Positions 7,046-60,260 of a stretch of 64,000 bases of DNA are shown piece after piece; position 1 is the first letter of the stretch; every line of letters begins with the position of its first letter. The position numbers and the translations under genes are program-made. The notes beneath the pieces are model-generated. The model did no database searches. It was not told the DNA's origin and saw nothing but the letters and a program-made list of their open reading frames with translations. The stretch is from Patescibacteria group bacterium. Its GTDB lineage: Bacteria > Patescibacteriota > Patescibacteriia > Veblenbacterales > UBA10138. Location of the stretch: positions 8,976 to 72,975 of the forward strand of contig JBAZQK010000007.1 of NCBI GenBank assembly GCA_041645215.1. Reading direction: 5' to 3'.

Positions 7046-7062
7046 ATATACCGGAGTTAAAA

Positions 7063-7319
7063 TGAAATCTTTTATTGGCCTATTTTATGATGAAGTCAAA
7101 CATAAGGGCGTTAAGGTGGTCATCCAAGAAATTGATGACGACGACGTTATTAGCGCTCTAATAGAAAAACATCGTCGCGGCTACAGCGGTTTGTTAGAAA
7201 TTGAACCGTCGGAAATGGAATTCATCAAAAAACTGTCAGCCGCTGAACTTGAAAAATTTCGTAACATCATTGGCCAGTTGGCATACAAGGCCCTAAATGA
7301 TGGCAGACTTATGGCTTAA
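7063..7319 (+). CDS. Hypothetical small acidic protein. The ORF-track start is 7020; the likely start is the Met at 7063.
   Basis: An ORF followed by a terminator hairpin. No recognisable domain. Confidence 0.4.
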
Positions 7320-7414
7320 CTTTAAAAACAAACCAACGCCTCCTCCAAGTGCTGGCAACTAACCAGCACTCCCTTCTTAAGCTCACGATTAACTCGCGGT
7401 TTTAAGAAGTCACC

Positions 7415-7450
7415 AAACTTCTGCCCCTACGCGGAAGTTTTTTGTTTACT
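7415..7450 (+). terminator. Rho-independent terminator after the 7063-7319 gene
   Basis: Stem aaacttc / gaagttt with loop tgcccctacgcg, followed by 'tttttgtttactatttttt'. Confidence 0.55.
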
Positions 7451-8228
7451 ATTTTTTCTCCTTTGTATTTTTGTATTATCGTGTTAACCACGCATCACAA
7501 TGGGTGCCTGGCACTGCACATTGATACAAAGAAAAATAGTCCAGTTATACCACAGACTACGCTTCCTCCCCCAGCCTAAAAACTGGGGTTCCTATAGACG
7601 ACTGACTAGGATATTTTGTCAAACCCGTAAGTCCTGAATAAATTAACGACGCAAACAGCCGATTCATTTTGAATCAGCTATTTTATTTGTAAAAACTCAT
7701 TAGTAAAATTGCTCCGCTGCGGTGACCGGATTTATTTTACTAATGATAATTCAGTTTAAAGAAAAGACAATCACGCCAGCTAACGAGCCTGACGAGCGCT
7801 GCCGAAACAAGCGGCGCTGTCAGCGCCGCTTGTTTCGTAATTCGTATTTCACCCTGCGGGTGACCACCCGCCATTCGGCCTCGACGAGTTCGACAGAGGT
7901 TCACTCCAAGTCCTCATGGCCAAGAGGTAGAGCGACTTGATTCGTAATTCGGATTGCTATTAACGCGCAAAACTAACTTCAGGGAATTATGTCCGGCCGG
8001 ACATATTTCCCTGAAGCATCTTGCGGCGAGGTGAGTGAATTTACTCTCCCTTGTTCACCTTTTTGAGGACTACGGCAACCCGCCATCGGCCTCTTATAAT
8101 TGATGATTACTGCTTAGTGCTGTAGTTTTCTATTTAATAGCATCGTTTACTTTGTACAGGCTTAGGCAGGCGGGGGGGGGAAATTCCGCCGAGATACCAT
8201 CCCCCGGTACTTCGGGATGGAACTTTAT

Positions 8229-9670: not shown

Positions 9671-9853
9671 TTCCTGCCCGCTCCGTCATGGCTTCGCCAG
9701 ATCTCGTCGTCGCTACGCAAGATCTCGCGAAGCGAGACAGAGCGATGACTAAGCGGGGCCCGCCGCTAGCCTTACCCGATAGCTGAACCGATACCAGACT
9801 ACAATACTTTTATTTATAGTTAGAGCGTGTTTGACACAGCAGCTTTGGCAGGC
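9671..9853 (+). repeat. Z-family repeat copy (cctgcccgc...gctagccttaccc...tttatagttagag...ctttggcaggcggg)
   Basis: It shares the 45-nt segment tttatagttagagcgtgtttgacacagcagctttggcaggcggg with 1695-1745 (reverse orientation), and its termini with 9988-10098 and 47622-47736. Confidence 0.6.
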
Positions 9854-9987
9854 GGGTTTAATCAATTTTACTAATTCGTGATTCGCTAATCGTTCTTCGC
9901 TACTCGTATTTAATATACGAACCCGCGAGTTGCGAAGCCACGATAAACGATTATTAATTATTAAATTAAAATTCAATAAAAATTTAA

Positions 9988-10098
9988 AATTGCCTGCCCG
10001 CCGCTCGCCTCATTCAATTAACTGATTGCTATAAAATTATAGTACTAATATTTATAGTTAGAGTTTATCCAAAACATAAGCTTTGGCAGGCGGGTAAA
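9988..10098 (+). repeat. Z-family repeat copy
   Basis: It runs from cctgcccgccgctcgcc to tttatagttagagtttatcc...ctttggcaggcggg, tandem to the 9671-9853 copy in the murG-murC spacer. Confidence 0.55.
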
Positions 10099-10105
10099 TT
10101 AAAAA

Positions 10106-11176
10106 TTACCTTGCTTTATTCCGTTGTAATAAACCAATTATCTGCGCAACTATTTTTTCAGCGGCGTCATTATTCAGCAATTTGTGTAAATTGCTTCCAA
10201 GTGTAACCGCCGCCTCTGACAACAAAAGCTGTCTTAGAGTATCAACAAACATCTCAGCCGTCAAGCTATTTTGCGGCAAAACCGCCGCCGCCTGGTTCTG
10301 TTTGAGCCAAGCCGCGTTGTCCTCCTGATGCGTATCGGGAATTGGTATTACGATAGTTGGTTTACTGGCGGCCGCCAACTCACTAATGGCTCCCATACCG
10401 CCCCGGGTGACTGCCAAATCAGACGCCGCGATTAAGGTTATCATATCATTTGACAACGGAACTGATAAATAATTTTCCCGCTCTCTCTCCTCGCCTTTAT
10501 GCAAACCGGTCAGATGAATAACTTGGCTGAATTCGGTTAACTGTTTGATGGTGCGCGAAATCAAGCCGTTGATATAAACGGCGCCGGTGCCGCCGCCCAT
10601 TATCAATAAAGTCGGCCAATCAGGCTTAAGACCAAGTTTAATTCGCGCCGCGGCCTGATTGGGTAGGTCGGCAAAACCTGGCCGCACCGGATTGCCGGTT
10701 AATACCGTTTTGCGCGCGGGAAAATTAGCAACCGCTATCGGCCAGGCGACAGTTATTAAATTGGCTGCCGGCGTCAGCAACTTATTGGCTAAACCGGACC
10801 GAACATCAGCTTGATGGATAAGTTGCGGAACACGATAACACCAGGCGGCCCAACCAACCGGCACGGCCACAAAGCCGCCGGCTGACATTACAAAATCCGG
10901 GCGCTTAAGGCCAAACCGCCAGAGCGCCGCAAAAAATCCCCGCCCAATTGAAAACAAATCAGTCAGATTGCGCCAACTCCAATAACGGCGGAACTTTCCG
11001 GCCGGAATGGCGACAAACTTCCAACCCTTGAACTTGATAAGATTTTTTTCCGGACCAGCTTTAGTCCCCCACCATTCAATCCGCAAAGACGGCTCTGATT
11101 TTTGCCATACTTCAGCCACGGCAATCAGGGGTGTAACCGAACCGAGCGTACCGCCGCCCACACAAACCAGCTTCAT
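10106..11176 (-). CDS. murG: UDP-GlcNAc:undecaprenyl-PP-MurNAc-pentapeptide GlcNAc transferase
   Basis: GT28 motifs 'GGGTLGSVTP' and 'GGMGAISE' are present, in dcw-cluster context. Confidence 0.9.
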   Translation of the reverse strand: MKLVCVGGGTLGSVTPLIAVAEVWQKSEPSLRIEWWGTKAGPEKNLIKFKGWKFVAIPAGKFRRYWSWRNLTDLFSIGRGFFAALWRFGLKRPDFVMSAGGFVAVPVGWAAWCYRVPQLIHQADVRSGLANKLLTPAANLITVAWPIAVANFPARKTVLTGNPVRPGFADLPNQAAARIKLGLKPDWPTLLIMGGGTGAVYINGLISRTIKQLTEFSQVIHLTGLHKGEERERENYLSVPLSNDMITLIAASDLAVTRGGMGAISELAAASKPTIVIPIPDTHQEDNAAWLKQNQAAAVLPQNSLTAEMFVDTLRQLLLSEAAVTLGSNLHKLLNNDAAEKIVAQIIGLLQRNKAR

Positions 11177-15144: not shown

Positions 15145-15280
15145 AAACTATATTAATTGTAGTTGAAAGGGGGGGGTTTAGGCAAACTAAATAGTCTAAT
15201 TAAATTGTTAAACCGGACAATCTTTGATATACTCAAGTCAAGCTGGGCGCCAAATTAAAATGGCTCGGCCAAGTGAAACT

Positions 15281-15460
15281 CCATCCTCCTTGGCGGATAG
15301 CATCTTCATGTTCTGCGGCGCCCGTCCTCCGTCCTCCCAAGGAGGACTACGGAGGATGGAGAACCCGTTAAAGCCTATCCTCCTTGCCTACTGAAACCAT
15401 AGTCCCGATGTACAAAAAGGACGAGGGCCGGGCGTTCACCTTCTTGAGGACGGTAGCAGG
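15281..15460. repeat. P-family palindromic repeat element (core GTCCTCC-N-GGAGGAC)
   Basis: Core gtcctcccaaggaggac at 15331-15347. It shares 25 nt (cggcgcccgtcctccgtcctcc) with 53210-53235. The 21-mer gtcccgatgtacaaaaaggac is the reverse complement of 20484-20504. Confidence 0.65.
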
Positions 15461-20432: not shown

Positions 20433-20597
20433 AACTCGGGAGCTGTAGTCCCACCATTGGCGGGGCGGGATATTATGGCGAAGTCCTTTTTGTACATCGG
20501 GACGAAAAAGGATAAAATCCGCCGTCGTCCAGATGTACAAAAGGGAGGGTATTGACAGCGGAGCCGGAGCTAAGCGGGACCCCAGAAGAATAAAACT
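20433..20597. repeat. P-family-related mosaic repeat in the pilin-pilin spacer
   Basis: Contains gtcctttttgtacatcgggac, the reverse complement of 15403-15423, and atccgccgtcgtcc, similar to 28300-28340. Confidence 0.5.
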
Positions 20598-23151: not shown

Positions 23152-24210
23152 ATGCTTTTTCAACCCCGCACCGATCATATTGGTTTGGACATCAGTGACC
23201 ATTCTTTAAAGGCCGTTCAATTTATTAAAACCCTAAACGGCCGGCTTAAACTGGTTGGGTTAAGCGCGCAGTATCTTGCCGATGGCATAATTAAAGACGG
23301 CACAATCAAAAACACCGTTGCTTTCACCAAAGCGGTCAGTCAATTACTGCTTAAACCGACTTGGGGTAAATTTACCACCAATTTAATCGTCGCCTCACTG
23401 CCGGAAAGTCGGACTTTCATAAAAATGATTACGGTGCCCTCTTCCAATCAAGATATCGCTCAAGCGGTTAAATGGGAAGCTCAACATCATATTCCCCTGC
23501 CGTTGGAGGATACTTACTGGGATTGGCAAACCATTAAATCAACCCCCAATTTTGACAATAGCCGCCAGCCGATTTTACTGGCAGCCGCCCCCAAAGACAT
23601 CGTTGAATCATATAACCAGGCTCTTAATCAAACTCATTTAACTGCCATTGCGATGGAAATTGAAGCTCAAGCTATTGTTAGAAGCTTAATTCCCATTAAC
23701 CAAGTTAATCAGACTGAAGCCACTATGATAATAGATATTGGCGGCGACCACACCAGTCTCATAATGTTCAGTTTTGACACCATTCAATTTACCGTATCTC
23801 TGCCCATATCGGGACGCGCTATCACTCAAACAGTGGCCGACACTATAAAACTTGACGCGACCCAAGCTGAATTAGCCAAAATTAAATATGGTCTTGACCC
23901 GTCGGCACAGCACGGCGCAATTTATAAAATTCTCCAAAATATGACCAACGAACTGGTTCATCGACTTCAAGAATCACTGGTTTTTTACCAAGAACACTTT
24001 CCCAACAACCCGCCGGCGACCTCAATAATACTTTGCGGGGGCGCGGCTAATTTAAAAAAAATCGACCAATTACTGGCGGCCGAAATGAAAATTCCCGTCC
24101 GCTTAGGAAATCCGTGGTGTAATGTTTCGGCTAATGTCAACCCTCGGCCCGAGGCCGATGCCTTATCCTACACCACGGCCATTGGGTTGGCGCTGCGCGA
24201 TTTAATTTAA
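23152..24210 (+). CDS. pilM: Type IV pilus assembly protein PilM (actin-like ATPase fold)
   Basis: 'IGLDISDHSLKAVQ' N-terminus; 'IDIGGDHTSL'; a C-terminal 'CGGAANL' motif. Confidence 0.85.
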   Translation: MLFQPRTDHIGLDISDHSLKAVQFIKTLNGRLKLVGLSAQYLADGIIKDGTIKNTVAFTKAVSQLLLKPTWGKFTTNLIVASLPESRTFIKMITVPSSNQDIAQAVKWEAQHHIPLPLEDTYWDWQTIKSTPNFDNSRQPILLAAAPKDIVESYNQALNQTHLTAIAMEIEAQAIVRSLIPINQVNQTEATMIIDIGGDHTSLIMFSFDTIQFTVSLPISGRAITQTVADTIKLDATQAELAKIKYGLDPSAQHGAIYKILQNMTNELVHRLQESLVFYQEHFPNNPPATSIILCGGAANLKKIDQLLAAEMKIPVRLGNPWCNVSANVNPRPEADALSYTTAIGLALRDLI

Positions 24211-24240
24211 ATATATGCCCAGTAATACAACTTGGCTAGC

Positions 24241-24626
24241 GCTCGCCCAGTACCAGAGCAAGCACGGTACCGGGCATCACCACTGGAATGTATTGCTAAC
24301 CATCAATGAACGGCAGTATGTCAGAACTTTCATATCTAGCTTATGATTTTAGCGCTCGCCCAGCACCAGAGCCCCGAAGGAGAACAAGTTCCCTACGGGG
24401 CAGGCAAGCACGGTACTCTCGCATCGCTCCAACGGTATATTCCTCATCGGCAGCGAGCGGCCAACAATCCCAATCTTTTGACTATTCTTGGTGCCCAGGG
24501 CTCGCCCAGTACCAGAGCAAGCACGGTACCGGGCATCGCCACTGGAGTACATTGTTTACCGGCAGTGGACGGCAGTAATGTCAATACTCCCATATATAGC
24601 TCTTGGTTCTTGGGCTCGCTTCAACC
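24241..24626. repeat. Tandem array of about 3.3 degenerate 113-146-bp units (T-family) between pilM and pilN
   Basis: Units begin at 24241, 24354 and 24500, each starting gctcgcccag[t/c]accagag, with a truncated start at 24614. The middle unit is nearly identical to 27696-27844. Confidence 0.8.
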
Positions 24627-24730
24627 ACCTTTTATTATAAAATTATGTTTTGTTTAGAATTATTTAATCAATTACCTTTGTTTAACCGCGCTCGCGCTTA
24701 AGGTAGTTTAGCAAAGTTGATATACCGGGT

Positions 24731-25279
24731 ATGCCCAGAATATTACTCAATCTGCTGCCAGCTGAACAAAAAAAATACATTGAAGTAATGTTCAATTACA
24801 AGTATTTGCGCATTATAACTTTTTTGATTCTAACTTTTGCGGTGATAGCGGCCGGGGTAGTGCTAAGCTCCAGGCTTTTACTGCAGGACAACTTAAACGA
24901 CCTGTTAACCAGCAGCTTGGCCATTACGCAAAAAAATACCAATCTTGACCAGCAAATAACCCAACTTAACGCGGAATTAAAAAACATCAGCACTATCCAA
25001 AATGATTTTGTAAAGTGGTCAACGGTAACGGCTAGTATCCTGGCGACTATCCCTTTGAATATTGAACTAAACTACTTCAACATTGAAAAACAAAGCGGCC
25101 GCCTTGATCTTAACGGTCGGGCCCGGGAACGGACCGACTACCTTAAATTAAGCGAAAATTTAAGCCAACTGACGTACTTGGAAAAATTAAACTCACCCTT
25201 GACCAATCTATTGTTGCGCCAGAATGTTGACTTCCAGTTAAACGGACGTATTAATCTGAACAAATTCAGTCAGCCTTAA
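24731..25279 (+). CDS. pilN: Type IV pilus assembly protein PilN
   Basis: N-terminal 'ILLNLLP' (INLLP motif) followed by a TM segment and a coiled coil. Confidence 0.75.
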   Translation: MPRILLNLLPAEQKKYIEVMFNYKYLRIITFLILTFAVIAAGVVLSSRLLLQDNLNDLLTSSLAITQKNTNLDQQITQLNAELKNISTIQNDFVKWSTVTASILATIPLNIELNYFNIEKQSGRLDLNGRARERTDYLKLSENLSQLTYLEKLNSPLTNLLLRQNVDFQLNGRINLNKFSQP

Positions 25280-27403: not shown

Positions 27404-27462
27404 AAATACATAATAATGGCAAAACCCGCCCTTGACTAGGTTATTATTATTAATTATACTTA

Positions 27463-27637
27463 GAGATGGTTCCAAAACTCTTTCGTGGCGAAATTTCAGT
27501 TTTTCTTGCGAGACGAGGAAGGCGAGCAAAAAGAATTGAAACGTAGTAGAACTACGGTGAAATCCTTTTTGCGAAGCCTGACGAAGTCGCAGCCGAAAAG
27601 ATGAAATTACAGCAGAAATGAGTTTTGAAACCATCTC
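27463..27637 (+). mobile_element. Y-family MITE-like element copy Y1 (TIR gagatggttccaaaactc / gagttttgaaaccatctc)
   Basis: 175 bp. Its reverse complement recurs at 60048-60222. The central hairpin cgtagtagaactacggtgaa is shared with the X family. Confidence 0.75.
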
Positions 27638-27695
27638 TTAGTCTCGCTTTCATAATTCTCAATTCTTGCCCAGTATAACTACTTATGTTATAGTT

Positions 27696-27844
27696 CGCCC
27701 AGTACCAGAGTCCCGAAGGAGAACAAGTTCCCTACGGGGCAGGCAAGCACGGTACTCTCGCATCGCTCCAACGGTATATTCCTCATCGGCAGCGAGCGGC
27801 CAACAATCCCAATCTTTTGACTATTCTTGGTGCCCAGGGCTCGC
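27696..27844. repeat. Solo copy of the T-family middle unit
   Basis: About 147 nt, identical to 24354-24499 except for 2 C/T transitions. Confidence 0.8.
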
Positions 27845-28262: not shown

Positions 28263-28360
28263 TTATGAAGCCTCCACGGGCTTACGCCCGAGGTATCCTT
28301 CATTTTTTCGGCGAAATCCGCCGAAGTCCTCCCAAGGAGGACGAAGGCGGATAAAATTCA
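28263..28360. repeat. P-family palindromic repeat element
   Basis: Core gtcctcccaaggaggac at 28326-28342, flanked by atccgccgaag / cgaaggcggat. Confidence 0.6.
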
Positions 28361-28422: not shown

Positions 28423-30078
28423 CTAACTGCCCTTCCCAATATCAACGCCGCTATTAAGCTGGGCTACGGCCGCGGCCATAAAATCGCGGAATAAAGGATG
28501 CGGACGCAAGGGTCGGGATTGAAATTCCGGATGAAACTGCACCCCCACAAACCACGGATGGTCGCGGAGCTCCACAATCTCTACCAGGTGACCGTCGGGC
28601 GAAGTGCCGGAAATAACCAAGCCGACTTTTTCCAAGCGGACGCGATAAGCGTTATTGAATTCATAACGGTGGCGGTGGCGTTCGGAAATCTCGCTTTTAC
28701 CATAAGCCTCATAAGCTTTGGTACCCTTAAGCAAACGGCAGTCCCAGGCCCCCAACCGCATCGTCGCGCCATAATCCTTAGCTAACATTTTCTTTTCTTG
28801 GTCCGGCATTATATGGATAACCGGGTGTTTGGTTTTAGGATCAATTTCCGTGGAATTAGCATCGGCCATATCAGCTAAATGACGGGCGATTTCCACGGTA
28901 GCCAGTTGCATACCATAACACAACCCCAAAAAAGGCATACTATTCTCGCGGGCATACTTAATAGCCGCCACGATTCCTTCCGTCCCCCGCCCGCCAAAGC
29001 CGCCGGGTACCACCAACCCCGCCATATTTTTTAAATATTTTTCCGCGCCGTCAGCTTCTATTTTTTCCGAATCAACCCAATGTAATTTTGGTTTAACTCC
29101 ATTGGCCCAGCCGGCGTATTTAAGCGACTCTATCACTGATACGTAAACATCTGACAAAACATAATCGCCAGTTGCAAAGTATTTGCCCACAATGGCAATC
29201 GACACTTCCGGTTTATCGGTTTTGACAACTTCAGCCAACTTTTGCCAATCATTTAAATCTTTACCCTTGGGCTTAAGGCGAAACTTTTTTAAGACTCTAT
29301 CGGCAAAGGCTTGCTCGTCAAATTTTAAAGCCACGTCATAAACCGATTCCAAATCAGGATTGGAAATAATATCATCGCTGTCCATATTACAAAACAAAGC
29401 TAACCGCTCCTTGCGTTTGCGGTCAAGCGGTTTCTCGGCGCGGGCCACCAAAAAATCCGGCTGAATACCCATACTATTCAACAATCGGACTGACATCTGC
29501 ACTGGTTTGGATTTCATTTCACCGACGGTCGGCGGCGTTGGCAAATAAGCCACATGTACCTGTAACACACTGTCTTTATCGCGTAATTTCATAATACGCG
29601 ATGATTCATAATAAAAAATATTTTGGTATTCCCCGGCGGTTCCACCCAGCTCGATTATAACAATATCAGCCCGCGATTTGCGACCGGCATTTTTAACGCG
29701 CCGAATAATTTCATCGCATAAATGCGGGATAGCTTCCACATCCTCACCTTCATAACCAAAAGCTCGCTCCTTGTCTATCACCGTCTTATAAACCTGCCCC
29801 ATCGTTATAAAATTGTCGCCGGACAGCGGCAAATCCAAAAATCTTTCATAAGTCCCGATATCTTGGTCGGTCTCAAGGCCGTCATCACAGACAAATACTT
29901 CTCCGTGCTCCGTCGGCCGGATCGTGCCAGCGTCCACATTCAAATAATTCTCACACTTAACCGGACACACCCGATAACCTTTGCTCTGCAATAATTTAGC
30001 TAACGACGCCGCCGCTATCCCCTTGCCAACGGACGACATTACGCCGCCGGAAATAAAAATGTACTTGATTTTCGCCAT
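28423..30078 (-). CDS. pyrG: CTP synthase. The track ORF uses GTG at 30114, inside a repeat; the likely start is 'MAKIKYIF' at 30078.
   Basis: 'KYIFISGGVMSSVGKG', a glutamine amidotransferase 'GLCYGMQ' and 'FHPEF' are present. Confidence 0.93.
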   Translation of the reverse strand: MAKIKYIFISGGVMSSVGKGIAAASLAKLLQSKGYRVCPVKCENYLNVDAGTIRPTEHGEVFVCDDGLETDQDIGTYERFLDLPLSGDNFITMGQVYKTVIDKERAFGYEGEDVEAIPHLCDEIIRRVKNAGRKSRADIVIIELGGTAGEYQNIFYYESSRIMKLRDKDSVLQVHVAYLPTPPTVGEMKSKPVQMSVRLLNSMGIQPDFLVARAEKPLDRKRKERLALFCNMDSDDIISNPDLESVYDVALKFDEQAFADRVLKKFRLKPKGKDLNDWQKLAEVVKTDKPEVSIAIVGKYFATGDYVLSDVYVSVIESLKYAGWANGVKPKLHWVDSEKIEADGAEKYLKNMAGLVVPGGFGGRGTEGIVAAIKYARENSMPFLGLCYGMQLATVEIARHLADMADANSTEIDPKTKHPVIHIMPDQEKKMLAKDYGATMRLGAWDCRLLKGTKAYEAYGKSEISERHRHRYEFNNAYRVRLEKVGLVISGTSPDGHLVEIVELRDHPWFVGVQFHPEFQSRPLRPHPLFRDFMAAAVAQLNSGVDIGKGS

Positions 30079-30220
30079 ACCCAGTATATCAACTTGGCTT
30101 AACCACCTCAGCACGAGCGTGGTTAGACAAGAATAAATGATTAAATGATTTTAGAAAAGACATAAAGTTATAATAGCTGGTGGTTAGGGCGAGTGCTAGC
30201 CAAGTTGTATTACTGGGCAT
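30079..30220 (+). mobile_element. W-family MITE-like element copy W1 (TIR acccagtatatcaacttggc / gccaagttgtattactgggcat)
   Basis: A 142-bp element that starts directly at the pyrG start codon. Its termini recur at 30221/30472, 47465/47610 and 24217-24242. Confidence 0.75.
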
Positions 30221-30472
30221 ACCCAGTATATCAACCCCGTAGAATCACGGCGGATACATCGATCAACCGTAATGTCCGGATTAATTGTAAGTAATTTGCG
30301 ATTTTCATAAATATTGATTGTCCGCCGTAACTCTACGGGGTCAACTTGGCTTAACCACCTCAGCACGAGCGTGGTTAGACAAGAATAAATGATTAAATGA
30401 TTTTAGAAAAGACATAAAGTTATAATAGCTGGTGGTTAGGGCGAGTGCTAGCCAAGTTGTATTACTGGGCAT
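30221..30472 (+). mobile_element. W-family copy W2, interrupted by nested element V
   Basis: Same termini and internal sequence as W1 (aaccacctcagcacgagcgtggttagacaag...). A 105-bp insertion lies after position 15. Confidence 0.75.
30236..30340. mobile_element. Nested 105-bp V element with TIR cccgtagaatcacggcgg / ccgccgtaactctacggg, flanked by the 5-bp direct repeat 'tcaac'
   Basis: W2 reads ...tatatcaac[V]tcaacttggc..., while the uninterrupted W1 reads tatatcaacttggc. That leaves a clean 5-bp target-site duplication. Confidence 0.7.
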
Positions 30473-30482
30473 AATAAAAAAA

Positions 30483-30929
30483 TCAACTGGCTTTAATATT
30501 TATCAATAAATTAACGGCTAGATCGCGATGCAACTGGATAGCAATAGTATGACGGCCGACGGTTTTTAAAGGCGCTGTTAATAAAATAGATTTTGGTTGC
30601 GCTTTAAATTGTTTTTTAGCCAGCGCGGCCGCGATATCGGCGCGAGTCACACTGGCATACAGCTTGCCCGAATCAGCCGCGCGGGCGTTTATTTCAATTT
30701 CCCCCATGCCTAACAGTACCGCCGCCGCCGACTGGGCTTGTTTTAAGCTATCAACCGCCAATTTAGCCGGCGTGGCGGCCTGGATTTTAATATTGGCAAG
30801 CGCTTTAGCTGTCGCCGGAATTGCCTCCCGACGCGGCAACAGATAGTTAATGGCATAACCATCACTAACTTCCTTAACCTCATTAGTATAGCCGTTACCC
30901 GGTATAGCCTTTAATAATATAACTTTCAT
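30483..30929 (-). CDS. rplI: 50S ribosomal protein L9
   Basis: 'MKVILLKAIPGNGYTNEVKEVSDGYAINYLLP' is typical of L9. Confidence 0.9.
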   Translation of the reverse strand: MKVILLKAIPGNGYTNEVKEVSDGYAINYLLPRREAIPATAKALANIKIQAATPAKLAVDSLKQAQSAAAVLLGMGEIEINARAADSGKLYASVTRADIAAALAKKQFKAQPKSILLTAPLKTVGRHTIAIQLHRDLAVNLLINIKAS

Positions 30930-47621: not shown

Positions 47622-47736
47622 CCTGCCCGACGCTAGCCTTACCCAATTAACCAATAGTTGTCCAATGACCTTATATATATTCATCGCTAGATTATGTTTA
47701 AGACTTTGGCTTTGGCAGGCGGGTCAAAATGGAAAA
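47622..47736 (+). repeat. Z-family repeat copy
   Basis: cctgcccgacgctagccttaccc...ctttggctttggcaggcggg. Confidence 0.55.
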
Positions 47737-47757
47737 TTATTTATCTAATCCTAAATA

Positions 47758-49355: not shown

Positions 49356-51665
49356 TTGACTGCTGTCTTAATGGTCGCGGCCAAATCAGCAAAAAGTGCT
49401 ACAATAAATTATATGCCAACTACTTTATTAGCCAGCCTGCTCGGTTTAATACTAAGCCTAAACCTGTGGCTGGTGCATTCCCTTATTCTTGGCTTACTGG
49501 TCGGGTTCGCGTATTTATGGCTAACCGGCACACTCTGGAGCGAACGATTAAAACTAAATAGCTGGTTGGAAAAGTTTGTTATCGGTAGTATCAGTTTAAT
49601 GGCCGCTGTCATAATTATCAGCACCATTGGTTTTTATATTGGCCTATTTAATAAATACCTCATCGGCCTACTATTGGTAGCCTTACCTTTGGCTGGCCAA
49701 TTTAAACAAGTCAAATTTACCCTCCTCCGCAAGCGACAGCGAGCGGAGAATGATCAGCCTGTAAAAGCGGGAATGAATGAGGATATCCTCCGTAGCCTTG
49801 GCGAAGAAGGATATGCTGCGGAGGGTTCTGCCCGACGAAACATGGTGAGAGGTGCCACGAGCAGCCTACTCCGTCCTCCTAAGGAGGACGGAGTAGGCTG
49901 GGTAAGCCTGTGGAACTCAACTTTGGCCGCCGCCTTAGCCATTACCTGGCAAAAAATACTCACACTGACGCTCTTTATCATTTTAGCCGGCTTAACCAGT
50001 TACAGCCTTTACTATGTGTTAAGCAATGAAGCCCTGCGCACACCCTGGCAGGTTGTGTTGCCAATAACTTTCGCACTTTATGCCGGCGCCGTCGCCGCTT
50101 GGCTAATAGTCAGCCGCTATTTCAAAGCCGGCGGCCTAATATTACTTTATTTGATAAGTTCAAGTGTATTGCCGCTAGTCTACGCTTTGGGTTATGGCTT
50201 TGACCCGTTTATTCACCAAGCCACGGCTAAAATTTTAGCTAACACCGGCACCATTGACCCTAAACCCTTATATTACATTGGCCAGTACGTAATCGTGGTA
50301 ATAATCAACTGGGTCACGGCTCTGCCTATTAACCTCATAGATAAATGGCTGTTGCCGATTTTAACCAGTTTGATTCTGCCTGTGCTCACGGTACGAAAAC
50401 TAAAACAGACCGCCACGGATAATTATCTACTGGTACTGGCTGGAGCCTTGCCATTAATTTTTTTGCTCAGTCAATTCACTTACACCACCCCGCAGGGTTT
50501 AGCTAATTTATTAGCCTTAGTTCTAATTTTTACTTGGTTTAAAAATAATGACGGCGTTCACCTGCCTATTTGGTTTAGCTGGCTAGTGGCGCTAGCTGGC
50601 GTGGCCGTTCATCCCCTGACAGGACTGCCTCTGCTGGGATTAAATACCATTTGGCAAATATACCAAAGCAATCTTAAACTAAATATCAAAAAATGGCTGC
50701 TGGGTTTGGCGGCCACGGCCACGGCCTTAGTGGTACCGCTCGGATTCGCGGTGATGTCCTGGCTCAAACCGTCAGCCGCCAGTATTAAATTATCATTTGA
50801 CTGGTGGAATAGTTTGGCGCGCCTTGGTAGCAATCTGGCTGGAGCTTTGCCGATTTTACCGCCCTATACTGAAGTGGCTGACGTGGTTTATTTATGGGGC
50901 CGGCCGTTGGTTTTAATAATTGTGGCGTTAGCGGCTTGGGGCTGGTACCGCACTAGCAAATACCGCTTGGGCGCCGGATTTTTAATCACCAGCTTTGGCT
51001 TGCTGACTTTGAGTTATTTGCTTTTAAATTTATTTGCCAAATTTCCTAATCTGCCGACCAATGAGCAGAATTTTTATGCGGCGCGTTTATGGGAGTTGGC
51101 TTTGTTCACACTCTGGCCGTTGGCGCTCTATGGCGGATATCAAATTATCCATTATGTTTGGTACGAACGGCGCGCGCCTTATTTAGTGAGTGTAAGTTTA
51201 GTGTTAATATTAACAGCCTCATTTTACCTGACTTACCCCAGGCTGGATGTTTATCATCGCGATACCGGCTACAACACCACGCCCGATGATGTGCAAGCCG
51301 TAAAACTGATAAATAATGTTGGCGCCAATGGCAATTATGCCGTGCTCGCCAATCAGGCGGTCGCCGCCGCCGCCATCAAGACGTACAGTTTCAACAAATA
51401 CTTTGGACAAAATTTTTACTACCCCCTGCCGACCGGAACTAATCCATTGTACCAGGTCTATTTGAACGCGGCCGAGCGCGGATTGCCGACGCGTGCGACC
51501 ATTAAAACCGCGGCTGATATCACCGGCGCGCCGCAAATTTTTTTGGTTTTGAATAAATACTGGGCAAACTTTGACAAACTTACCGTCGTCGCCGACAGCG
51601 CCGCCAACCAAAAATGGCTGGTAGGCGACGGCCGTATTGCCATTTACCGCTACGATTTTAAATAA
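49356..51665 (+). CDS. Large polytopic membrane protein (possible GT-C-like or polymerase). The likely start is Met20 at 49413.
   Basis: About 14 TM segments. It contains an in-frame P-family repeat encoding a hydrophilic loop (49740-49905). Confidence 0.5.
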   Translation: MTAVLMVAAKSAKSATINYMPTTLLASLLGLILSLNLWLVHSLILGLLVGFAYLWLTGTLWSERLKLNSWLEKFVIGSISLMAAVIIISTIGFYIGLFNKYLIGLLLVALPLAGQFKQVKFTLLRKRQRAENDQPVKAGMNEDILRSLGEEGYAAEGSARRNMVRGATSSLLRPPKEDGVGWVSLWNSTLAAALAITWQKILTLTLFIILAGLTSYSLYYVLSNEALRTPWQVVLPITFALYAGAVAAWLIVSRYFKAGGLILLYLISSSVLPLVYALGYGFDPFIHQATAKILANTGTIDPKPLYYIGQYVIVVIINWVTALPINLIDKWLLPILTSLILPVLTVRKLKQTATDNYLLVLAGALPLIFLLSQFTYTTPQGLANLLALVLIFTWFKNNDGVHLPIWFSWLVALAGVAVHPLTGLPLLGLNTIWQIYQSNLKLNIKKWLLGLAATATALVVPLGFAVMSWLKPSAASIKLSFDWWNSLARLGSNLAGALPILPPYTEVADVVYLWGRPLVLIIVALAAWGWYRTSKYRLGAGFLITSFGLLTLSYLLLNLFAKFPNLPTNEQNFYAARLWELALFTLWPLALYGGYQIIHYVWYERRAPYLVSVSLVLILTASFYLTYPRLDVYHRDTGYNTTPDDVQAVKLINNVGANGNYAVLANQAVAAAAIKTYSFNKYFGQNFYYPLPTGTNPLYQVYLNAAERGLPTRATIKTAADITGAPQIFLVLNKYWANFDKLTVVADSAANQKWLVGDGRIAIYRYDFK
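49740..49905. repeat. P-family palindromic element inserted in-frame in a CDS
   Basis: The perfect 33-nt palindrome cctactccgtcctcctaaggaggacggagtagg lies at 49865-49897. It encodes '...RGATSSLLRPPKEDGVGW...'. Confidence 0.6.
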
Positions 51666-52420: not shown

Positions 52421-53713
52421 TCAAGAGCTCAATCGAGCTAACAAACTTGTAAGTTCGCGCGCGTAATCAGCCAAATTACTGGCTGAACTATTTTGTTTGG
52501 TATGACTGGCGGCGGCCGCCAATAAACTTGGGTTATCCAAACACCTATTAAGTTTTTGCGTAAACTCGGCCTCACTGCCGGGCGTGAACATCCAACCATT
52601 AACCCCCTCCTCCATAAGTTCCGGAATTCCGCCGCTTTGTGAGGCCAGCACCGGCGTACCCTGAACTTTAGCCATGGTAATAATGGTGGGCGCGTTTTCT
52701 AAACACAATGACGGTACGATTGCCAGGTGACTGTCGGCAATATAATTGTCAATTTCGGCTTGCGTGACAGTACGGTTAAGGGCAAAACGTTTATCGTCAC
52801 CAATCAAATTAACCAGCCGGGCCCAATTGTCCAGCGCGCCGACCGCTACAATTCGCAATGACCAATCACTCCGTGAACTTTTTTTAAGTGTTTGCACCAA
52901 CCAAAATATACCCTTATGCTCTTGAATCTGCCCGACGTATATCAAATTAACCAGACCCAGCGGCTTAAAGACCGATAGCGGGGCGGCCAGTGGCGGAACC
53001 GGATTGGGTATTACCTTAATTTCACTATTTTTAAAAAATCCCCGACTAATGTGTTCAGCCATCAGCCAACGCGATGGCGCCACCACAATATTTACCGGCT
53101 GGAATAACCAACGGGTAATAAACTGATAAACCTTAACGATTAAATTTTCATAACTCTCCTCAACCTGAAGCTTCCACGGGCTCATCCCGCCGTCTATGGT
53201 ATATTTCATTTCGGCGGCGCCCGTCCTCCGTCCTCCTTGGGAGGACGAGGGTGGATAAAATAAACCCGAGGGGTGTAGCAGTTGGACATCGTGCAAGGTG
53301 TGAAGATGTTTAAGCGACAGCGACTTAATGGCGCGCGGCAACCAAAACGACAAGCCCATCAAGTTAAAACTAATCACCGCCGCCGGCTTAACTTTTGCCA
53401 AAATTCGCCTGACCTGCCCCGCCGCCAGCCAATTAAACAAATTTATTTTATGCCAAACTAATCGCCACCCTAAACCATGGCGGGCGGCGTTAAGGTAATA
53501 ATAAACATTCAGCGGATAAAACCGATAAACCGCTATTTTATGCTCAATTCGGCAATCAGTTTTAAAACTACGCAAAGCCTGCCAGGGCGCGCTGGTAATA
53601 ACCGACACCTCATGTCCTTGATTAATCAATTCGACCGCTAACTGACTGGCGATGTATTCGGCGCCGCCGCGCCCGAACGGCGGATAAAGATTGGAAATTA
53701 TCGTGATTTTCAT
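52421..53713 (-). CDS. Glycosyltransferase family 4, with an in-frame repeat insertion
   Basis: GT4 C-terminal 'ASQSGGIPELMEEGVNG'. P-family core at 53230-53246 encodes 'PPSSSQGGRRTGAAE'. Confidence 0.82.
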   Translation of the reverse strand: MKITIISNLYPPFGRGGAEYIASQLAVELINQGHEVSVITSAPWQALRSFKTDCRIEHKIAVYRFYPLNVYYYLNAARHGLGWRLVWHKINLFNWLAAGQVRRILAKVKPAAVISFNLMGLSFWLPRAIKSLSLKHLHTLHDVQLLHPSGLFYPPSSSQGGRRTGAAEMKYTIDGGMSPWKLQVEESYENLIVKVYQFITRWLFQPVNIVVAPSRWLMAEHISRGFFKNSEIKVIPNPVPPLAAPLSVFKPLGLVNLIYVGQIQEHKGIFWLVQTLKKSSRSDWSLRIVAVGALDNWARLVNLIGDDKRFALNRTVTQAEIDNYIADSHLAIVPSLCLENAPTIITMAKVQGTPVLASQSGGIPELMEEGVNGWMFTPGSEAEFTQKLNRCLDNPSLLAAAASHTKQNSSASNLADYARELTSLLARLSS

Positions 53714-60033: not shown

Positions 60034-60047
60034 AGTTATGTTACTCT

Positions 60048-60222
60048 GAGATGGTTTCAAAACTCATTTCTGCTGTAATTTCATCTTTTCGGCTGCGACT
60101 TCGTCAGGCTTCGCAAAAAGGATTTCACCGTAATTATACTACGTTTCAATTCTTTTTGCTCGCCTTCCTCGTCTCGCGAGAAAAACTGAAATTTCGCCAC
60201 GAAAGAGTTTTGGAACCATCTC
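60048..60222 (-). mobile_element. Y-family copy Y2 (inverted relative to Y1)
   Basis: Reverse complement of 27463-27637. Confidence 0.75.
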
Positions 60223-60260
60223 TCTAAGTTTAATGTAGCAATAATCTAATTTTAACTGAT

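Follow-up and report, generated by a model that had tools for sequence, protein, structure and literature searches.

A hairpin-rich repeat probably inserted in frame into a membrane protein gene of a Patescibacteria group bacterium

How does a perfect, GC-rich palindrome come to lie inside the coding sequence of a polytopic membrane protein? The question is raised by a 64-kb stretch of contig JBAZQK010000007.1 (hereafter the window), which belongs to the metagenome-assembled genome (MAG) of a Patescibacteria group bacterium. The gene was listed as an open reading frame (ORF) of 769 amino acids at 49356-51665, and its start in the NCBI record and in the orthologues is the ATG at 49413. An earlier note on this DNA had described a palindromic repeat at 49740-49905 that was read through in frame within the gene, and both the read-through and the quoted peptide were confirmed from the ORF list and the translation. 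We propose that the palindrome is part of a longer element, here called copy C, and that copy C is very probably a dispersed, non-coding, hairpin-rich repeat that was inserted in the coding sequence of a short loop between 2 helices.

A protein search with the host product recovered the product itself, from the annotated Patescibacteria MAG, and 53 homologues. Residues 122 to 188 of the 769-amino-acid ORF were absent from all 13 aligned homologues (40% to 82% identity), including the 3 closest, which were 680 to 682 amino acids long and 78% to 82% identical, and 10 more distant ones. The contigs of 2 of the 3 closest homologues were syntenic with the window over the entire glycosylation cluster. 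When the DNA was aligned with the syntenic loci L001 to L003, whose orthologues are 80% to 83% identical, the difference appeared as a single clean gap of 201 nt, so that the check proposed in the earlier note, an orthologue alignment with an indel at the loop, gave a clear result and the inserted unit was relocated to 49719-49919. The filled site in the window reads AAATTT, then the element (ACCCTCC...GGAACTCA), then ACTTTGG, and the empty site in the relatives reads AAATTT-ACTTTT. The junction is ambiguous by 2 nt (AC), beyond which the target is not duplicated. No terminal inverted repeats were found at copy C, the ends of which, ACCCTCCTCCGC... and ...CTGTGGAACTCA, are non-complementary. 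The GC content of the insert is 0.54 to 0.56, compared with about 0.40 to 0.45 upstream of it, and only 1 of its 6 reading frames is free of stops.

Neither the core motif of the palindrome nor any copy of the repeat family described below was found in the fetched DNA of the syntenic, orthologue-bearing relatives. Because the relatives that lack the segment also lack the motif and the family, segment 49719-49919 is best read as an insertion and not as an ancestral loop. The earlier note had set against its own proposal the case in which orthologues free of such elements carry the segment; the relatives were found to lack it. There is the faintest chance that an ancestral loop was deleted in the relatives or that the segment is an assembly chimera, as could be suspected from the fact that a single contig carries exactly this host protein. 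However, the segment was missing from 13 of 13 homologues, it would be improbable for a chimera of 201 nt to be stop-free, in frame and an exact match to a repeat family along its full length, and the same phenomenon was observed in the adjoining gene for a GT4 glycosyltransferase.

The core of the palindrome, GTCCTCC-N3-GGAGGAC, occurs 4 times in the window, at 15331, 28326, 49873 and 53230, compared with 0.02 occurrences expected by chance. The earlier note had given the core correctly, although with a spacer of 4 nt instead of 3, and had missed the occurrence at 53230. A joint family profile identified exactly 4 copies in the window, here called A to D (Table 1), all of which fold far better than shuffled sequences. 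In a direct comparison within the window, copy C seems to share only the core with copies A, B, and D. The link that the earlier note had drawn to the intergenic elements at 15331 and 28326 nevertheless held, and extends beyond the 17-nt core, since all 4 copies belong to one modular family.

Copy D, to judge from its orthologues, is a second in-frame insertion, located in the neighbouring GT4 gene, in the part for the N-terminal domain. The encoded protein is 430 amino acids long in the window, compared with 397 amino acids in 3 syntenic orthologues, and the 33 additional codons coincide with copy D, which is read as ...YPPSSSQGGRRTGAAEMKYTIDGGMSPWKLQ... in the host frame. The Pfam match to Glyco_transf_4 (the GT4 N-domain) was stretched by about 58 residues in this gene. 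Copy D is 73% identical to copy B over 99 nt and 85% identical to copy A over 53 nt. Copy A, which was recovered in nhmmer searches with E=2e-6 and 1.4e-8, is located upstream of a pilB-like gene, and its forward and reverse parts share the P hairpin, as we refer to the hairpin that contains the core. Copy B lies between the convergent genes rpmA and pyrG, adjoining a bidirectional terminator, and is 92% to 96% identical to copies at other loci (L008 and L010) in the MAG JACRFM01 of Candidatus Kerfeldbacteria. A possible degenerate relic of the family, below the level of significance in nhmmer, was noted between pilin-like genes at 20470-20550 (GTACATCGGGACGAA...GGATAAAATCCGCC...GTCCAGATGTACA).

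Table 1. Coordinates of the 4 copies of the repeat family, the host gene of copy C and the hairpins within copy C.
Feature	Position in the window	Strand	Description
Copy C, inserted element	49719..49919	+	201 nt, 67 codons; indel relative to L001-L003 and 13 protein homologues
Host gene, polytopic membrane protein	49413..51665	+	750 amino acids from the annotated ATG; the insert corresponds to residues 103-169
First hairpin of copy C	49725..49748		CTCCGC-N12-GCGGAG; 9 nt longer than in C-type copies elsewhere
Second dyad of copy C	49785..49826		ATCCTCCGTAGC (49785-49796) against GCTGCGGAGGGT (49815-49826); 12 pairs, including 2 G-T wobbles
Nested P hairpin of copy C	49862..49900		Perfect 18-bp stem with TAA loop; contains the GTCCTCC-N3-GGAGGAC core; in the loop of the domain II hairpin
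Copy A, intergenic	~15273..15432		Composite, rearranged; forward part 15273-15357 and reverse domain II part to ~15432
Copy B, intergenic	28265..28359	+	Canonical 95-nt type 1 element
Copy D	53167..53256	+	Inside the GT4 glycosyltransferase gene 52421-53713 (-); nhmmer E=4.6e-22

Family members were also identified in other genomes. A scan of genome contigs with the 17-nt core pattern gave at least 116 matches, most of them due to chance, and at least 6 were located in JACRFM01. The copies in this MAG define a 95-nt element, type 1, of the form ATGAAGCCTCCACGGGCTYACGCCCGAGGTATCCTTCATTTCTTCGGCGAAATCCGCCGAA-GTCCTCC-YNR-GGAGGAC-GAAGGCGGAT. Longer mosaics in L111 and L038 have a hairpin, GTCCCGATGTACATCGGGAC, nested in their left arm, and in L061b and 2 contigs from the Joint Genome Institute (JGI; L120 and L121) both ends were kept and the P hairpin was replaced by other hairpins. 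A left module of 62 nt was 97% identical between otherwise dissimilar contigs. Three core matches in other Patescibacteria consisted of a single hairpin and resembled ordinary terminators; these were not included in the family.

Profile searches showed that copy C, which is read in the opposite direction to copy B, spans the whole element: 49915-49832 matched the type found in L111 (nhmmer E=5e-5) and 49859-49716 matched the type found in L120 (E=2e-4). Furthermore, a search of 1.84 billion representative proteins with the 67-residue insert peptide retrieved 7 short ORFs of 52 to 103 amino acids (P0175 to P0181), which were gene calls over intergenic copies of the same type, here called C-type, on other contigs. 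A profile of the C-type copies, the carriers of which are unrelated metagenome contigs, matched 140 nt of the window (49720-49859) with an nhmmer E-value of 2.5e-28. The same profile also matched the type 1b copies (5e-8) and type 1 (7e-3), and therefore ties all of the subfamilies together.

One locus was assembled 3 times independently, and each assembly stops within a C-type copy (L156 at 1-149, L157 at 2-131, and L158 at 1-107), and several other carriers are contigs of only about 0.6 to 1.6 kb, as multi-copy repeats typically break assemblies. The carrier contigs differ widely in GC content, from 46% to 54%. A metagenome scan with a 23-base type 1 pattern matched 2 contigs only, the scans of viral contigs retrieved nothing real, and neither a BLAST search of plasmids and phages with the C-type consensus nor a word-index protein search with the copy D peptide gave a match. 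A search of the whole window against Rfam 15 gave no match at the gathering threshold, and at E<=10 copies A, B, and C matched only generic hairpin, leader, and miRNA noise.

In one of the JACRFM01 contigs (L015 3650-3830), the rplL gene ends with ...KKKIEEAGGKVTLK and a stop codon, followed by a fragment of a hairpin with the P core and then, before the terminator, by a second copy of the last 13 rplL codons that is 83% identical (KKLEEAGAKVSLK and a stop codon). At this locus, the end of rplL thus seems to have been carried in, or duplicated, by the insertion.

To describe the architecture of the family we used an alignment of 7 sequences, A2, from which the stems were also derived. Domain I consists of a long-range stem, A(T/C)CC(G/T)CC...GG(C/A)GG(A/G)T, around a variable interior that contains the P hairpin alone in type 1 and 2 other hairpins in the C-type copies. 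Domain II is a terminal hairpin ending in ...GCC(C/T)GTGGAGGCTTCAT, the loop of which may hold a further nested hairpin: the P palindrome in copy C, GTCCCGATGTACATCGGGAC in L111 and L038, and none in L152 and L154. The termini of copy C align with those of the family, A(T/C)CC(G/T)CC and GGCTTCAT, which are non-complementary and form no terminal inverted repeat. It follows from the alignment that the conspicuous P palindrome is in all likelihood a cassette nested within a larger modular element.

Standard pairs were observed in 95% of the stem cells in the alignment, compared with 33% to 55% when the partners were slid, and 9 pairs had changes on both sides, such as ATCCGCC/GGCGGAT compared with ACCCTCC/GGAGGGT. 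None of 500 shuffles reached the observed covariation score. The differences between the C-type copies were evenly distributed over the 3 codon positions (0.201, 0.197, and 0.206), and copies B and L010 differ by a frameshifting indel. For these 2 reasons, the family is constrained as nucleic acid and not as protein. They also ruled out copy B as a small ORF (MKPPRAY...EGG and a stop codon), a candidate that had been considered.

Within copy C, the earlier note had placed the palindrome at 49865-49897; it is real and larger, CAGCCTACTCCGTCCTCC-TAA-GGAGGACGGAGTAGGCTG, and exceeds every other perfect GC-rich hairpin of the window in length. The second dyad of the earlier note was likewise recovered. 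Its 3' arm, GGAGGGT (49820-49826), can alternatively form a stem with ACCCTCC (49719-49725), which is located at the 5' end of the element, and this alternative pairing corresponds to the conserved long-range stem of the family (helix 1, in which 100% of the positions were paired and 2 of the 7 pairs had compensatory changes). The z-score for the fold of copy C relative to shuffled sequences was -6.8, both as RNA and as DNA.

The perfect stem of 18 bp suggests templated copying, and short CCTCCG/CGGAGG motifs recur inside the insert, which could indicate that the whole segment arose locally, by slippage or palindrome amplification, with no mobile element involved. We give hardly any credence to this explanation, which is contradicted by the match of 140 nt of the segment to elements in unrelated contigs; in addition, the ends of the insert are the ends of the family. 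Local copying explains only the perfected arms of the nested hairpin. By comparison with L111, the left arm of the P hairpin in copy C (CCTACTCC) is ancestral to the family, whereas the perfect complement in the right arm has no counterpart in L111. We therefore infer that the perfect palindrome originated by templated copying from arm to arm, of the quasipalindrome type.

Evidence for mobility of the family came from comparisons of orthologous loci. L111 of JACRFM01 is collinear with the window over 26.6-34.7 kb, with 72% to 84% nucleotide identity. The pyrG-rpmA spacer in JACRFM01 lacks copy B, and in L123 and L124, where pyrG is 82% identical, the spacer retains the shared bidirectional terminator and lacks the 95 nt. 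Conversely, L111 contains a copy at 2033-2170, between a gene of the EPSP_synthase family (murA-like) and a gene for an S41 peptidase, and the counterpart of this spacer in the window is 48 nt long and empty. On the right, the junction can be placed exactly: CTTCAT-TTTTGACCT in L111 and TAG-TTTTGACCT in the window. No family copies were found in about 100 kb from 5 other relatives. The related genomes thus carry copies at different loci, with reciprocally filled and empty orthologous sites. It was also noted that nearly every copy has TTT before its A(T/C)CC end; at the site of copy C, for which there is one exact empty site, this TTT is pre-existing target sequence.

The empty sites bear on a further explanation, in which selection keeps the family as a structured signal that functions as RNA or DNA, for instance to stabilise mRNA 3' ends, to assist terminators or to bind a protein, and the intragenic copies are accidental. 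Most of the copies in JACRFM01 are located 1 to 46 nt after stop codons, copy B lies beside a terminator, the 62-nt left module is 97% identical and the stems covary, all of which would fit such a role. However, the orientation relative to the upstream gene varies, the orthologous sites are empty in close relatives, and the copies break assemblies in the manner of high-copy repeats. We consider this explanation improbable, although host function and selfish spread of the family are compatible with each other.

Under the reading that we prefer, in which copy C is an inserted member of the dispersed family, the member would have entered the coding sequence for a short loop between 2 transmembrane helices. 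As its length is a multiple of 3 and one frame is open, the gene would have stayed intact and the element would be translated as a hydrophilic, probably disordered loop of 67 residues. Templated copying between the arms would have perfected the nested palindrome. As for the mobilising activity, we would guess that a transposase of the HUH/Y1 type moves the element in trans, by way of single-stranded DNA, similarly to the miniatures of IS200/IS605 or to the REPINs (doublets of repetitive extragenic palindromic, REP, sequences). The guess is based on the lack of terminal inverted repeats, a target duplication of at most 2 nt, subterminal hairpins and the location of TTT always at the same end; single-strand folding is also strong (z=-6.8 and -5.1 as DNA). 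We regard this mechanism as doubtful.

Several observations weigh against the insertion of a mobile repeat as we have described it. No transposase, integrase or reverse transcriptase was identified in the window, for which every sizeable ORF was checked with Pfam, and no Y1 transposase was identified in the fetched loci with a crude tblastn probe (whole genomes were outside the search). The copies have diverged and include no near-identical pair, so that recent activity is unsupported. An exact pair of filled and empty junctions exists for copy C only, and the remaining junctions compare different species. The covariation is based on 7 sequences, with the structure taken from the same alignment. 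Furthermore, the window is a MAG contig, in which the population may be heterogeneous at the site of copy C, and the 67-residue loop is putatively translated, as judged from frame preservation.

To examine the consequence for the host protein, we built an AlphaFold2 model from an alignment of 14 sequences. The predicted local distance difference test (pLDDT) values were 85 to 91 for the 4 helices before the insert and 34 to 46 for the insert itself (residues 122-188), followed by helical segments of moderate confidence (about 42 to 58). In the model, the insert lies between transmembrane helices and disorder is predicted for it, in agreement with the loop position for which the earlier note had proposed a topology prediction. 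The insert contains 11 lysine or arginine residues and 9 aspartate or glutamate residues. As the native loop in the host, GQFKQVKF, is basic, the positive-inside rule suggests that the loop is on the cytoplasmic side. No match to the host protein was found in Pfam, and a fold search gave weak matches to GT-C proteins (PglB, E=0.04; AftA, E=0.2), a hint that it may be GT-C-like.

Both of the intragenic copies are multiples of 3 in length, 201 nt for copy C and 99 nt for copy D, and both are stop-free in the host frame. Copy C, in the orientation in which TTT precedes A(C/T)CC, is read as TLLRKRQRAEND...VGWVSLWNS, and gene callers produced P0175 to P0181 because other C-type copies are open in this frame too. 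No intrinsic terminator, that is a GC-rich hairpin with a U-tract, was identified within 49719-49919, where the hairpin is followed by GGGTAAGCC. Given the single stop-free frame, the lengths and the lack of a terminator-like site, the element is probably translated rather than removed, and the added residues may be tolerated since they fall in a short, variable loop between helices. We consider it highly improbable that the 201 nt are excised, as a small intron or a self-processing RNA, to give a protein without the extra loop. The stable fold of copy C and the conservation of the stems with compensatory changes would be expected of such an RNA, but an excised element needs no frame, no ribozyme or intron in Rfam was matched even at E<=10, and most of the copies are intergenic and occur in either orientation.

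Other repeats were observed in the window. An element of about 185 nt, similar to a MITE (a miniature inverted-repeat transposable element), is present at 27456-27642 and 60043-60234, with near-perfect terminal inverted repeats of about 23 nt (ACTTAGAGATGGTTCCAAAACTC...). The 2 copies share 97% identity and face in opposite directions; one of them overlaps the 5' end of an ORF for a C39-like peptidase, the other is located between genes for an epimerase and GtrA, and a 76% identical copy is present in the JGI contig L120 (2375-2564). Another repeat, of about 170 to 250 nt, occurs in tandem at 24200-24740, with 94% identity at 27675-27844, and inverted and in tandem at 30076-30487, around pilM and pilin-like genes and upstream of pyrG, and is partly conserved in JACRFM01 (L111 4307-4544). 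A short, conserved intergenic repeat, TATTTATAGTTAGAG...GCTTTGGCAGGCGGGT, was found at 9800-9871, 10038-10109, 47678-47739, and 1705-1752, with an 85% identical copy in JACRFM01 (L008 3431-3531), and may be a promoter or leader or another small element. Finally, a perfect GC-rich hairpin of 16 bp, CGAAACAAGCGGCGCT-GTC-AGCGCCGCTTGTTTCG, is located at 7803-7837 inside a stretch of 1.2 kb (7046-8228) with no ORF of 100 or more amino acids.

The family of copy C resembles several known groups of elements. Like the classical MITEs (Correia/NEMIS, ERIC, and Nezha), its members are small, non-coding and present in multiple copies, with sites that are filled in some relatives and empty in others, and are sometimes intragenic with in-frame fusions. 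Membership among the classical MITEs fails because the family has neither terminal inverted repeats nor target-site duplications, and the MITE-like element of the window itself, which has terminal inverted repeats, looks quite unlike the hairpin family. Correia elements have terminal inverted repeats, and the analogy that the earlier note had drawn to them is weak, since they are in addition described as mostly intergenic or gene-disrupting.

In architecture only, the family is similar to the miniatures of IS200/IS605 (palindrome-associated transposable elements, PATEs) and to the REP/REPIN elements with their REP-associated tyrosine transposases (RAYTs), as it lacks both terminal inverted repeats and target duplication and has hairpins close to either end, a fixed TTT that adjoins one end (3 nt, which is very short), and strong single-strand folding. 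It differs in that no Y1/HUH transposase was found in the searches described above, and the elements are much longer than single REPs. A GTAG on the 5' side of the hairpin, which is a REP hallmark, was not noticed when the copies were read, and no systematic search was made for it. Bacterial interspersed mosaic elements (BIMEs) are extragenic clusters of REPs in enterobacteria, composed as a mosaic of palindromic units. The combinatorial use of palindromic units is similar here, whereas no sequence relationship is known.

Palindromic repeats that colonise genes in frame are classically known as a peculiarity of Rickettsia. By outcome, the closest analogue would be the Rickettsia palindromic element (RPE), and this part of the analogy in the earlier note is borne out by copies C and D, although we do not claim strict membership. 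The RPEs are about 150 bp long, comprise ten families and are often found in frame in unrelated genes, and Correia elements are mostly intergenic or disrupt genes (PMC10969869). Both the RPEs and the family described here are dispersed, hairpin-rich repeats of about 100 to 200 nt with several copies in a bacterium with a small genome, here 4 in 64 kb. Both are found in frame in unrelated genes, where they add a peptide if folding permits, here 67 codons for copy C and 33 codons for copy D, both are also intergenic, and neither is known to have an associated transposase (for the RPEs, see also PMC10969869). The differences are that the host phylum is Patescibacteria, that the copies have no codon-position bias and thus no sign of a conserved peptide, and that the family is strongly modular, with swappable cassettes and contigs of 46% to 54% GC; the comparison with the RPE families was by description.

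A full-text search of the literature retrieved no description of such elements in Patescibacteria, and our verdict is that the repeat family is new but the phenomenon, in-frame palindromic repeats, is of a known kind. It is conceivable, although unlikely, that the family represents an undescribed superfamily that crosses phyla, with 2 conserved stems, swappable cassettes, no terminal inverted repeats or target duplication, a T-rich target and HUH-like or RNA-mediated spread, and that in the streamlined Patescibacteria it would repeatedly supply enzymes of the cell envelope with new segments, at the surface or in loops.

The family has termini that can be aligned and stems that covary, and annotation pipelines currently miss it or mis-call it as small ORFs, as for P0175 to P0181; it explains contig breaks in some assemblies and inflates the counts of hypothetical proteins. 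The copies are markers for comparisons at the strain level and a handle for finding the mobilising enzyme. Both of the in-frame targets are genes for envelope glycosylation, and the presence of 2 in-frame cases within 4 kb in Patescibacteria indicates that the phenomenon may recur in small genomes. The finding would place RPE-like colonisation in a second, unrelated lineage with small genomes, by a family that is unusually modular and apparently widely distributed.

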